Origin: Escherichia coli
GTDB lineage: Bacteria; Pseudomonadota; Gammaproteobacteria; Enterobacterales; Enterobacteriaceae
Strand: one strand, 5' to 3'
DNA length: 64,000 nucleotides
NCBI RefSeq assembly: GCF_003334335.1
Contig: NZ_QOWQ01000028.1
Part shown: in pieces, positions 12,777 to 25,720 of the stretch
Position numbering within the stretch: the stretch's first letter is position 1
Layout of the letters: every line of letters starts with the position of its first letter
Position numbers and translations under genes: made by a program
The notes under the pieces: generated by a model
What the model was told of the DNA's origin: nothing
The model's input: the letters and a program-made list of their open reading frames with translations, nothing else
The model's database searches: none

Positions 12777-13667
12777 ATGATCAAGAAGACAACGGAAATT
12801 GATGCCATCTTGTTAAATCTCAATAAGGCTATCGATGCCCACTACCAGTGGCTGGTGAGTATGTTTCACAGCGTGGTCGCGAGAGATGCCAGTAAGCCAG
12901 AAATAACGGATAACCATTCTTATGGACTGTGCCAGTTTGGTCGGTGGATTGATCATCTGGGGCCACTCGATAACGATGAATTACCTTACGTTCGGCTAAT
13001 GGATTCTGCCCATCAACATATGCATAACTGTGGTCGGGAATTAATGCTGGCTATTGTTGAAAATCACTGGCAGGACGCGCATTTCGACGCCTTTCAGGAG
13101 GGGTTGCTTTCTTTTACTGCGGCATTAACCGATTACAAAATTTATTTGCTGACGATCCGTAGCAATATGGATGTTTTGACGGGATTGCCGGGTCGTCGGG
13201 TTCTTGATGAATCCTTTGATCATCAGTTACGCAACGCTGAGCCTCTGAATCTTTATTTAATGTTGTTGGATATTGACCGATTTAAATTGGTTAATGATAC
13301 CTACGGGCATTTAATCGGCGATGTAGTATTACGCACCCTGGCAACTTACTTAGCCAGTTGGACGCGTGATTACGAAACGGTTTATCGCTACGGGGGCGAA
13401 GAATTTATCATTATTGTCAAAGCGGCTAATGATGAAGAAGCATGTCGTGCAGGTGTCAGAATTTGCCAGTTAGTCGATAACCATGCCATCACACATTCTG
13501 AAGGGCATATCAACATTACCGTGACAGCAGGTGTGAGTCGCGCATTTCCTGAAGAGCCTCTGGATGTGGTCATTGGAAGAGCGGACCGGGCAATGTATGA
13601 GGGTAAGCAAACCGGAAGAAATCGCTGCATGTTTATTGACGAACAAAATGTGATTAACCGAGTTTAA
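12777..13667 (+). CDS. dgcZ: Diguanylate cyclase with N-terminal zinc-sensing CZB domain
   Basis: GGDEF-domain active site RYGGEEF; start at MIKKTTEID after AGGAG RBS, 296 aa. Confidence 0.9.
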   Translation: MIKKTTEIDAILLNLNKAIDAHYQWLVSMFHSVVARDASKPEITDNHSYGLCQFGRWIDHLGPLDNDELPYVRLMDSAHQHMHNCGRELMLAIVENHWQDAHFDAFQEGLLSFTAALTDYKIYLLTIRSNMDVLTGLPGRRVLDESFDHQLRNAEPLNLYLMLLDIDRFKLVNDTYGHLIGDVVLRTLATYLASWTRDYETVYRYGGEEFIIIVKAANDEEACRAGVRICQLVDNHAITHSEGHINITVTAGVSRAFPEEPLDVVIGRADRAMYEGKQTGRNRCMFIDEQNVINRV

Positions 13668-13711
13668 GCTCCGTTTAACATTCATTGAGAAAACTGATGC
13701 TACTGTGTCAA

Positions 13712-13810
13712 CGATTCGTTATCAGTGCAGGAAAATGCCTGTTAGCGTAAAAGCAAAACACAAATCTATCCATGCAAGCATTCACCGCCGGTTTACTGGC
13801 GGTTTTTTTT
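13712..13810 (+). ncRNA. mgrR: MgrR Hfq-dependent small RNA (PhoP-regulated); 5' end approximate
   Basis: About 98 nt ending in an intrinsic terminator (stem CCGCCGG/CTGGCGG then T8 at 13803-13810); PhoP-box-like direct repeat AGTTTA-N5-CGTTTA at 13661-13677 upstream; sequence matches MgrR as recalled. Confidence 0.7.
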
Positions 13811-13819
13811 CGCCGTCAT

Positions 13820-13858
13820 AAAAATCAGGCCCCTTGTACACAACTGTAACAAGGGGCC
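13820..13858 (-). terminator. Rho-independent terminator of mgtS
   Basis: 10-bp stem GGCCCCTTGT/ACAAGGGGCC followed on the minus strand by TGATTTTTAT. Confidence 0.65.
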
Positions 13859-13885
13859 GGTTAGGTGAGGGATTATCTCCGTTCA

Positions 13886-23312: not shown

Positions 23313-23375
23313 CGCGACATATTCAGCTCTGATATACTCGCAGGTCTTTTCAGACCTGCGGTCCAGGAGTAGAAA

Positions 23376-24302
23376 GTGGCAGTCGCCATGGATAATGCAA
23401 TTTTAGAAAACATCTTGCGGCAAGTGCGGCCGCTCATTGGTCAGGGTAAAGTCGCGGATTATATTCCGGCGCTGGCTACAGTAGACGGTTCCCGATTGGG
23501 GATTGCTATCTGTACCGTTGACGGACAGCTTTTTCAGGCCGGAGACGCGCAAGAACGTTTTTCCATTCAGTCTATTTCCAAAGTGCTGAGTCTCGTTGTC
23601 GCCATGCGTCATTACTCCGAAGAGGAAATCTGGCAACGCGTCGGCAAAGATCCGTCTGGATCACCGTTCAATTCCTTAGTGCAACTGGAAATGGAGCAGG
23701 GTATACCGCGTAATCCGTTCATTAATGCCGGTGCGCTGGTGGTCTGCGATATGTTGCAAGGGCGATTAAGCGCACCACGGCAACGTATGCTGGAAGTCGT
23801 GCGCGGCTTAAGCGGTGTGTCTGATATTTCCTACGATACGGTGGTAGCGCGTTCCGAATTTGAACATTCCGCGCGAAATGCGGCTATCGCCTGGCTGATG
23901 AAGTCGTTTGGCAATTTCCATCATGACGTGACAACCGTTCTGCAAAACTACTTTCATTACTGCGCTCTGAAAATGAGCTGTGTAGAGCTGGCCCGGACGT
24001 TTGTCTTTCTGGCTAATCAGGGGAAAGCTATTCATATTGATGAACCAGTGGTGACGCCAATGCAGGCGCGGCAAATTAACGCGCTGATGGCGACCAGTGG
24101 TATGTACCAGAACGCGGGGGAGTTTGCCTGGCGGGTGGGGCTACCGGCGAAATCTGGCGTTGGTGGCGGTATTGTGGCGATTGTTCCGCATGAAATGGCC
24201 ATCGCTGTCTGGAGTCCGGAACTGGATGATGCAGGTAACTCGCTTGCGGGTATTGCCGTCCTTGAACAATTGACGAAACAGTTAGGGCGTTCGGTTTATT
24301 AA
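23376..24302 (+). CDS. glsB: Glutaminase 2
   Basis: 308 aa ORF with serine-dependent glutaminase fold signature (SISKV); recognised as GlsB (YneH). Confidence 0.85.
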
Positions 24303-24661
24303 TGCAGTCTCTCGATCCACTCTTCGCGCGTTTATCCCGTTCAAAATTTCGCTCTCGCTTTCGTCTGGGCATGAAAGAGCGTCAGTATTGCCTGGAGAAA
24401 GGCGCGCCAGTCATCGAACAACATGCGGCGGATTTTGTCGCTAAACGTCTTGCTCCGGCATTACCGGCTAATGACGGTAAGCAAACCCCCATGCGCGGGC
24501 ATCCGGTGTTTATCGCTCAGCACGCCACCGCGACCTGCTGTCGCGGTTGTCTGGCTAAGTGGCATAACATTCCGCAGGGTGTTTCGTTAAGCGAAGAACA
24601 ACAACGTTATATCGTGGCGGTAATCTATCACTGGCTGGTTGTACAGATGAATCAGCCATGA
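24302..24661 (+). CDS. yneG: DUF4186-family protein
   Basis: 119 aa ORF; start overlaps the glsB stop (TAATG). Confidence 0.8.
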   Translation: MQSLDPLFARLSRSKFRSRFRLGMKERQYCLEKGAPVIEQHAADFVAKRLAPALPANDGKQTPMRGHPVFIAQHATATCCRGCLAKWHNIPQGVSLSEEQQRYIVAVIYHWLVVQMNQP

Positions 24662-24772
24662 GAATTGCGGAAAACGACAAAATAGCATTCCCAGGGTACC
24701 TTTATTTGCCGCCGCTGTCAGCGAACATGCTATCTTGGTTCGGTCAGTATTGATAGTCTGGATTTCTGGCCT

Positions 24773-25720
24773 TTGCTTGCGGACTGGTTCAGTGAGCAAT
24801 TCTCAACGGGCGTGTTGATCGTGCCTTGTATGCTGACGTTGGCTATTCCTGGAGTGCTGCCGCGCTTTAAAGCAGAACAGATGATGCCCGCCATCGCGCT
24901 TATTGTGTCGGTTATTGCCTCGGTAGTCATTGGCGGAGCGGGGAGTCTGGCGTTCCCGCTGCCTGCATTAATCTGGTGTGCAGTGCGCTATACGCCGCAG
25001 GTAACATGTCTGTTGACCTTTGTCACCGGTGCGGTGGAAATCGTACTGGTGGCAAATTCGGTGATTGATATCTCGGTCGGTTCGCCGTTCTCCATTCCGC
25101 AAATGTTCTCCGCACGTCTCGGTATTGCCACGATGGCGATATGCCCAATTATGGTTTCTTTTAGCGTGGCAGCGATCAATTCGCTAATGAAGCAAGTTGC
25201 GCTGCGAGCCGACTTTGATTTTCTGACTCAGGTTTACTCACGGTCCGGTCTTTATGAGGCGCTGAAAAGTCCATCGCTGAAACAGACACAACATCTGACT
25301 GTCATGCTGCTTGATATCGACTATTTCAAAAGCATTAACGATAACTATGGACATGAATGTGGCGATAAAGTGTTAAGCGTGTTTGCCCGGCATATTCAGA
25401 AGATTGTCGGTGATAAGGGGCTGGTGGCGCGAATGGGCGGCGAAGAATTTGCTGTTGCAGTGCCGTCGGTGAATCCTGTCGATGGTCTGCTAATGGCGGA
25501 AAAAATCCGTAAAGGCGTTGAACTGCAACCATTCACCTGGCAACAAAAAACGCTTTATCTCACGGTAAGTATTGGCGTCGGTAGTGGTCGCGCATCGTAC
25601 CTAACGCTGACCGATGACTTTAATAAATTGATGGTCGAAGCCGATACGTGTCTGTATCGCTCGAAGAAAGATGGGCGCAACCGTACCAGCACTATGCGTT
25701 ACGGTGAGGAAGTTGTCTGA
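24773..25720 (+). CDS. dgcF: Membrane-anchored diguanylate cyclase
   Basis: N-terminal TM helices plus GGDEF domain with RMGGEEF active site. Confidence 0.85.
   Translation: MLADWFSEQFSTGVLIVPCMLTLAIPGVLPRFKAEQMMPAIALIVSVIASVVIGGAGSLAFPLPALIWCAVRYTPQVTCLLTFVTGAVEIVLVANSVIDISVGSPFSIPQMFSARLGIATMAICPIMVSFSVAAINSLMKQVALRADFDFLTQVYSRSGLYEALKSPSLKQTQHLTVMLLDIDYFKSINDNYGHECGDKVLSVFARHIQKIVGDKGLVARMGGEEFAVAVPSVNPVDGLLMAEKIRKGVELQPFTWQQKTLYLTVSIGVGSGRASYLTLTDDFNKLMVEADTCLYRSKKDGRNRTSTMRYGEEVV

Follow-up and report, generated by a model that had tools for sequence, protein, structure and literature searches.

An intact dgcZ, a K-12-type dgcF remnant and a probably autonomous mgrR in a core segment of the Escherichia coli chromosome

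The stretch of DNA analyzed here (the window; 64,000 nucleotides of contig NZ_QOWQ01000028.1 from the Escherichia coli assembly GCF_003334335.1) carries, between positions 12777 and 25720, what we read with high confidence (probability around 0.88) as two independent, already characterized GGDEF genes separated by ordinary core genes: a functional dgcZ, followed closely by an autonomous mgrR, and a dgcF reduced to the remnant found in K-12. The window belongs to the E. coli core chromosome, matching E. coli chromosomes at 100% with standard gene order and differing from MG1655 by 9 SNPs across 14.5 kb. The names dgcZ, dgcF, mgrR, and mgtS given in an initial annotation of the sequence were correct, as judged from the NF007380 model, Pfam, Rfam (STnc560), and mapping to K-12. 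Approximately 11 kb separate dgcZ from dgcF and contain ydeE, eamA, marRAB, marC, ydeA, yneK, ptrR, sad, glsB, and yneG; with ordinary core genes filling this interval, we rejected the 12.9-kb dgcZ-dgcF span as a single feature. Because all elements of the span have already been described, the finding is an ordinary one of little discovery value. Its practical value is a correction, namely that the window shares a 5′-truncated dgcF with 22% of complete E. coli genomes, K-12 laboratory strains included.

The dgcZ gene (ydeH; 12777–13667, + strand) encodes an intact 296-aa CZB-GGDEF diguanylate cyclase, identified by Pfam, NCBIfam, and a PDB match, and its coding sequence has zero SNPs relative to MG1655. 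The protein scored 522 bits against the equivalog model NF007380 (cut-off 256), with residues 1–296 on model positions 1–296, and residues 2–296 matched PDB 4H54 (E = 8e-203). The zinc-sensing N-terminal domain that had been proposed for it is present as Pfam CZB (PF13682; aa 22–89, 12840–13043, + strand) with four of four zinc ligands (H22, C52, H79, and H83). The GGDEF domain (PF00990, aa 130–283, E = 6e-45) holds the expected GGEEF active-site motif at aa 206–210 (13392–13406, + strand), confirmed by residue check. In architecture, zinc ligands, and GGEEF motif the protein is identical to DgcZ of E. coli K-12 (PDB 4H54, 3T9O, and 3TVK), with no detectable difference; it is the same gene. 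In DgcZ, the CZB four-helix bundle binds Zn2+ through H22, C52, H79, and H83 and keeps the GGDEF dimer unproductive, and c-di-GMP synthesis is freed on zinc loss or on oxidation of C52 by HOCl (PMC8846402), such that zinc-inhibited cyclase activity is known from the literature on a protein identical to the one encoded here. The dgcZ of the window is predicted to be a functional copy of this cytoplasmic zinc-sensing cyclase.

The dgcF gene (yneF) is a remnant. Exact prefix and suffix matching of the window against full-length dgcF alleles gave an unambiguous junction, without microhomology, for a 498-bp deletion at positions 24734/24735. The deletion took 65 bp of upstream DNA and 433 nt of coding sequence, including the ATG and codons 1–144, and left codons 145–472 of a 472-aa gene (24735–25720, + strand); neither the native start codon and 5′ region nor the complete ~300-aa hydrophobic sensor domain was found in the window. 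As annotated, from the K-12 start TTG 24773, the frame comprises 315 aa (24773–25720, + strand), with a GGDEF domain (PF00990, E = 3e-40), a GGEEF motif at residues 222–226 (25436–25450, + strand), and four hydrophobic segments. The RxxD I-site is absent, and GDKG stands at the canonical position, in agreement with PMC4287979. Of the initial description of dgcF as a membrane-anchored cyclase with an intact active site, the GGEEF motif and the hydrophobic segments hold, but the gene itself is not intact, and in a genome identical to the window PGAP flags dgcF as a pseudogene “missing N-terminus.”

Compared with full-length DgcF (472 aa; EHEC O157:H7 and EAEC O104:H4), the window retains residues 145–472 with 1–2 amino acid differences, and the two forms are alike in their GGDEF domain, GGEEF motif, and lack of an RxxD I-site, whereas the ~8 hydrophobic segments of the full-length protein are reduced by ~4 in the remnant. 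The frame is still open and lies 2 nt from the nearest full-length allele; both differences are non-synonymous, a number too small to weigh. Searches of Pfam and NCBIfam returned no model for the DgcF N-terminal domain. Among 5426 complete E. coli genomes, 1217 (22%; E ≤ 1e-20, contiguous junctions only) show the identical deletion junction and 4197 still contain the deleted segment, leaving ~77% with the full gene. The truncation was known before: the window carries the allele described by Richter et al. (2014; PMC4287979), who reported K-12 yneF to be 5′-truncated, misannotated in its start, and not expressed. A single 498-bp event would account for the loss of the promoter-proximal 65 bp together with the ribosome-binding site, the start codon, and codons 1–144, the last amounting to roughly half of the hydrophobic sensor domain, which appears to belong to no known family. 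Judged from sequence, the remaining open frame would encode four hydrophobic segments and a putatively competent catalytic GGDEF domain.

Since it lacks the native start signal, the dgcF remnant probably has little or no expression from its own locus. The remnant has no in-frame ATG ahead of 24830, and no Shine-Dalgarno sequence was found before either TTG 24773 or ATG 24830. The alternative is that truncated dgcF is a working gene, translated from one of these two internal starts on read-through transcripts from sad-glsB-yneG and yielding a four-helix, membrane-anchored cyclase without sensory control. The open frame and intact GGEEF motif, the lack of a terminator between yneG and the remnant, and the persistence of the deletion allele in over a fifth of genomes speak for such a gene, and from the Term-seq 3′ ends mapped within the remnant it is evident that transcripts reach into it. 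Under artificial expression from pBAD, moreover, the 315-aa MG1655 protein makes c-di-GMP in a manner requiring E224 (PMC11757272). Deletion of K-12 yneF is reported to raise motility, according to work cited in that paper, so that some native expression may be conceivable. However, those 3′ ends map at 34 and 64 nt into the remnant, which also contains a Rho termination region, a pattern typical of, and here consistent with, untranslated RNA. Neither candidate start is preceded by a Shine-Dalgarno sequence, a lacZ fusion to yneF was reported silent in W3110 (PMC4287979), PGAP calls the gene a pseudogene, and the two nucleotides that set it apart from the closest full-length allele are too few to weigh either way. 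We consider a working truncated dgcF rather unlikely and favor a silent or nearly silent remnant. Sequence-based reconstructions of c-di-GMP networks should leave it out of the tally of intact membrane-sensing cyclases.

Directly downstream of dgcZ, as the initial annotation stated, lie mgrR and mgtS. The 98-nt mgrR sRNA (13713–13810, + strand) begins 45 nt past the dgcZ stop and was identified by mapping of K-12 b4698 and by a full-length match to Rfam RF01407 (STnc560) at 281 bits (gathering threshold 55). Its terminator consists of a hairpin at 13784–13803 plus a T-run, and the Term-seq 3′ end of mgrR at K-12 position 1622824 corresponds to window position 13803. The 31-aa mgtS (13886–13981, − strand) is convergent with mgrR and differs from K-12 by V7A (SNP at 13962), and the 34-aa mgtT (13782–13886, − strand) overlaps the mgtS stop and extends antisense into the mgrR 3′ end. 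Published work places mgtS and mgtT in one operon (PMC11429745) and describes mgrR and mgtS as convergent and dependent on PhoQ/PhoP (bioRxiv 10.1101/2021.06.30.450655).

In the mgrR promoter, a PhoP-box-like direct repeat, cGTTTAAcattCATTGAg (13672–13688, + strand), starts 5 nt beyond the dgcZ stop codon and covers −41 to −25 relative to the mgrR 5′ end. Escherichia and Citrobacter share the GTTTAAC and CATT(G/T)A elements of this box and the mgrR core but not the upstream spacer, and from the published PhoP dependence we infer that the repeat functions as the PhoP box of mgrR. A GTTTAA over the dgcZ stop (13662–13667) was considered as a third PhoP half-site and not counted, because its conservation does not extend beyond close relatives of E. 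coli. Overall, the window copy of this PhoP-dependent, Hfq-binding sRNA is full-length, with terminator and PhoP-box-like promoter, and shows no difference from MgrR/RF01407.

The order dgcZ → mgrR ← mgtS is kept in two genera, Escherichia and Citrobacter, with the dgcZ-mgrR tandem conserved in E. albertii, E. whittamii, E. fergusonii, and Citrobacter, the loci of the latter having been reached via DgcZ homologues. In E. fergusonii the PhoP box lies inside the dgcZ ORF, which runs through it, and in Citrobacter an ABC-transporter operon is found between ydeE and mgtS. Escherichia sp. MOD1-EC7003 retains mgrR beside an 18-codon dgcZ stub. In Salmonella, mgrR/mgtS occupies the gap between ydeI and ydeE, with no ydeH listed there (PMC2515195). 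A scan of genome contigs with a 20-nt mgrR core, which was too strict, returned four Escherichia loci and four chance matches. The adjacency of dgcZ and mgrR characterizes the Escherichia and Citrobacter lineages; the conserved order is compatible with functional coupling, though it is not evidence for it.

It had been suggested that this adjacency may link Mg2+ and Zn2+ sensing to c-di-GMP control. Stated as a mechanism, transcription of dgcZ would run into mgrR and functionally couple zinc- and Cpx-controlled c-di-GMP synthesis with PhoP/Mg2+ signaling. The two genes are on the same strand, and the interval 13667–13713 contains no terminator-like structure. The Term-seq list has no 3′ end from the dgcZ stop up to the terminator of mgrR, and the only 3′ end it gives downstream of dgcZ is that of the mgrR terminator. 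As this is the first intrinsic terminator after dgcZ on its strand, read-through into mgrR is structurally likely and dgcZ transcripts would most likely end there; the conserved tandem order, and the E. fergusonii ORF that crosses the PhoP box, also favor a shared transcript. Against coupling, mgrR carries a conserved PhoP-box-like promoter of its own, and PhoP is absent among the regulators on record for dgcZ, which are CpxR, CysB, and CsrA (PMC13131220), as opposed to the PhoQ/PhoP control of mgrR and mgtS. The occurrence of mgrR/mgtS without dgcZ in Salmonella and the survival of mgrR after dgcZ loss in one Escherichia lineage argue for independent units. Furthermore, the target of zinc is the DgcZ protein and not dgcZ transcription, and zinc sensing would gain no connection to MgrR from a shared transcript. 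The SMRT-Cappable-seq supplements contained no entry for a dgcZ-mgrR co-transcript, and our literature search connected the two genes only as listed neighbors. The suggested link thus found no support beyond adjacency, and we regard coupling through read-through as quite improbable; mgrR and mgtS would instead act as autonomous PhoP-controlled units despite the neighboring dgcZ.

Small RNAs of the DapZ and MicL type are transcribed from a promoter of their own, situated where an upstream ORF ends, and use the same terminator as that ORF. The dgcZ-mgrR tandem resembles them in that the mgrR promoter starts 5 nt past the dgcZ stop (within the ORF in E. fergusonii) and the only terminator downstream is that of mgrR. 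It differs in that the E. coli mgrR promoter lies just outside the ORF, mgrR occurs elsewhere without dgcZ, and the co-transcript is putative here. It is a long shot that all dgcZ mRNAs run to the mgrR terminator and thereby carry a complete MgrR (seed plus Hfq-binding terminator) as their 3′ UTR, and that, conversely, low Mg2+ could dampen dgcZ. If so, an MgrR-like activity would come under Cpx/CsrA control independently of PhoP, or the dgcZ mRNA would come under Hfq control, and the dampening could arise in three ways, through PhoP bound 5 nt past the end of dgcZ, through transcription starting at the mgrR promoter, and through antisense read-through, limited by Rho, from mgtS into dgcZ. The tandem with its single common terminator poses a small question of transcript architecture. 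As a separate matter, we considered whether the phenotype of an EPEC plasmid carrying an N-terminal deletion of dgcZ was due to co-cloned mgrR, and rejected this because only the dgcZ ORF had been cloned.

The nearness of the two cyclase genes could also be taken to reflect clustering, whether functional or evolutionary, with the pair arising by recent duplication or forming a co-regulated module. The sole point in favor is that dgcZ and dgcF lie within 12 kb of each other, and such proximity is expected by chance: for 12–19 GGDEF genes on a 4.64-Mb circle, the probability that two fall within this distance is 0.29–0.60. We consider a cluster effectively refuted and retain the reading of two independent genes. 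Eleven unrelated genes, on both strands, intervene between them, and the GGDEF domains of DgcZ and DgcF are 31% identical, with unrelated N-terminal domains.

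The 14.5 kb around dgcZ (ydeH) and dgcF (yneF) was matched in thousands of E. coli chromosomes, several with 100% identity, and differs from K-12 MG1655 at nine positions. In the annotation of a genome identical to the window, genes are ordered ydeI, dgcZ, mgtT, mgtS, ydeE, eamA, marB, marA, marR, marC, ydeA, yneK, ptrR, sad, glsB, yneG, dgcF, uxaB; this order is unchanged in K-12, where the mgrR sRNA gene is additionally annotated between dgcZ and mgtT. Based on this annotated order, the two GGDEF genes enclose eleven unrelated core genes. Random placement of 12–19 GGDEF genes on a 4.64-Mb circle yields at least one pair within 12 kb with P = 0.29–0.60. 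DgcZ and DgcF are 31% identical across their GGDEF domains and unrelated in their N-terminal regions; dgcZ and dgcF do not form a cluster.

The dgcZ gene (12777–13667, + strand; no SNPs in the coding sequence relative to MG1655) was correctly described in the initial annotation as encoding a zinc-sensing CZB cyclase with an intact active site. Its product contains Pfam CZB (aa 22–89) and GGDEF (aa 130–283) domains, scores 522 bits against the NCBI DgcZ equivalog model (cut-off 256), and matches PDB 4H54 over residues 2–296. GGEEF occupies residues 206–210, all zinc ligands known from crystal structures (H22, C52, H79, H83) are present, and direct reading places R197-D-Y-E200 (RxxE) at the canonical I-site position. 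Inhibition of the cyclase by femtomolar Zn2+ bound to the CZB domain is an established mechanism, relieved by HOCl oxidation of the ligand cysteine (PMC8846402); known regulators of dgcZ are CpxR, CysB, and CsrA (PMC13131220).

For dgcF, proposed to be a membrane-anchored cyclase, the GGEEF motif is retained (residues 222–226 of the 315-aa K-12 annotation, in the GGDEF domain of the frame ending at 25720), but the gene is not intact, having lost its 5′ part to a 498-bp deletion. The observation on two cyclases is therefore only partly confirmed. In the genome identical to the window, PGAP annotates dgcF as a pseudogene with "missing N-terminus." STEC388 and O157:H7 Sakai carry an annotated full-length gene at identical locus coordinates. 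Exact matching to the STEC388 allele placed the deletion junction at 24734|24735, without microhomology; the deletion took out 65 bp of 5′ flanking DNA as well as the ATG and 433 coding nucleotides. Full-length DgcF has 472 aa, with about eight Kyte-Doolittle hydrophobic segments in the first ∼300 residues, of which about four are gone; its N-terminal domain has no model in Pfam or NCBIfam. A junction probe showed the extra 498 bp in most of 5426 complete genomes: the contiguous junction is present in 1217 (22%), the deleted segment in 4197, and the flanking sequence in 5415, counts that are mutually consistent. In strain HS-02 (NZ_CP172818.1, 1573123–1573525) the probe matched in two pieces spanning 403 bp rather than 70 or 568 bp, which hints at a second, distinct deletion allele. 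The truncation findings have all been published before: Richter et al. (2014; PMC4287979) described K-12 yneF as 5′-truncated by a deletion with a misannotated start codon, attributed its non-expression in W3110 to this truncation, and reported a full-size YneF with a ∼300-aa N-terminal hydrophobic domain and no I-site. We confirmed the missing I-site (GDKG at the RxxD position).

We consider dgcF a silent remnant, with a probability of roughly 0.7–0.8. In what is left of the reading frame, the first in-frame ATG comes at 24830, and the annotated TTG at 24773 lacks a preceding Shine-Dalgarno sequence. Evidently the remnant is entered by transcription from yneG; MG1655 Term-seq places RNA 3′ ends at 24807 and 24837, 34 and 64 nt inside the annotated frame, and a Rho termination region lies within the frame at ∼25491 (+) (PMC7815308 supplements), the behavior expected of poorly translated RNA. 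Expression from an internal start seems unlikely, even though the frame remains open, the 315-aa protein expressed from pBAD makes c-di-GMP in an E224-dependent manner (PMC11757272), and a K-12 yneF deletion, as cited in that paper, is reported to raise motility.

The placement of dgcZ directly upstream of mgrR and mgtS also proved right. The mgrR gene (13713–13810, +, mapped from K-12 coordinates) begins 45 nt past the dgcZ stop on the same strand, within an Rfam STnc560 match (13679–13892, 281 bits), and ends in a terminator hairpin (13784–13803) followed by eight T's. A PhoP-box-like repeat, cGTTTAAcattCATTGAg (13672–13688), begins 5 nt past the dgcZ stop, at −41 to −25 relative to the mgrR 5′ end. 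Both mgtS (13886–13981) and mgtT (13782–13886) are minus-strand genes, so mgrR and mgtS converge, as published (bioRxiv 10.1101/2021.06.30.450655). A SNP at 13962 relative to MG1655 produces a V7A substitution in MgtS (MLGNMNAFMAV…). The mgtS mRNA 3′ end (K-12 1622804, window 13823) lies directly past a hairpin at 13828–13858; the mgtT ORF extends beyond it, so full MgtT translation requires read-through of the mgtS terminator. A 29-nt stretch of this ORF also lies antisense to the 3′ end of mgrR.

The order dgcZ, mgrR, and convergent mgtS is retained in E. albertii, E. whittamii, and two Citrobacter groups. Across the aligned dgcZ-mgrR regions the PhoP box and sRNA core are conserved, and the spacer past the dgcZ stop varies from ∼5 to ∼110 nt. 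In E. fergusonii (locus L016, 4900–5125), which lacks mgtS and whose DgcZ shares only 65% identity with its E. coli counterpart, the dgcZ ORF runs through the PhoP box and stops within the second half-site, and a 53-nt insertion puts mgrR below the Rfam threshold. Escherichia sp. MOD1-EC7003 has lost ydeJ, ydeI, mgtS, and ydeE, and of dgcZ only the final 18 codons survive, yet it keeps mgrR and its promoter (locus L011, 10300–12800: dcp, dgcZ stub, mgrR, eamA). The ydeI/ydeE intergenic region of Salmonella contains STnc560 and the yneM ORF but no listed ydeH (PMC2515195). Taken together, mgrR appears to be an autonomous PhoP-controlled unit, located at the dgcZ 3′ end by happenstance in the Escherichia/Citrobacter lineage. 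Five Citrobacter loci carry, between mgtS and ydeE, an ABC-transporter operon of five genes (one for a periplasmic binding protein, two each for permeases and ATPases) that E. coli lacks.

No terminator-like structure was found between the dgcZ stop and mgrR, and Term-seq shows no 3′ end there on the dgcZ/mgrR strand besides the mgrR terminator (PMC7815308 supplements). Structurally, we infer that dgcZ transcripts continue into mgrR and end at its terminator. A dgcZ mRNA with MgrR as its 3′ UTR is plausible at the transcript level; that it serves as a regulatory mechanism is quite improbable. The initial interpretation as a whole is partly supported; within the suggested coupling of Mg2+ and Zn2+ sensing, a zinc link via a common transcript is mechanistically weak, since zinc targets the DgcZ protein rather than dgcZ transcription. 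Apart from the putative dgcZ-mgrR mRNA and any consequence of it, the features described are already known. Rho termination regions lie at ∼13357 (−), antisense to dgcZ (K-12 1623270, +), and ∼14074 (+), antisense to ydeE just past mgtS (K-12 1622553, −; Term-seq/bicyclomycin supplement, PMC7815308), which suggests that the mgtS and mgrR units both run past their terminators into each other's neighbors before Rho stops them.
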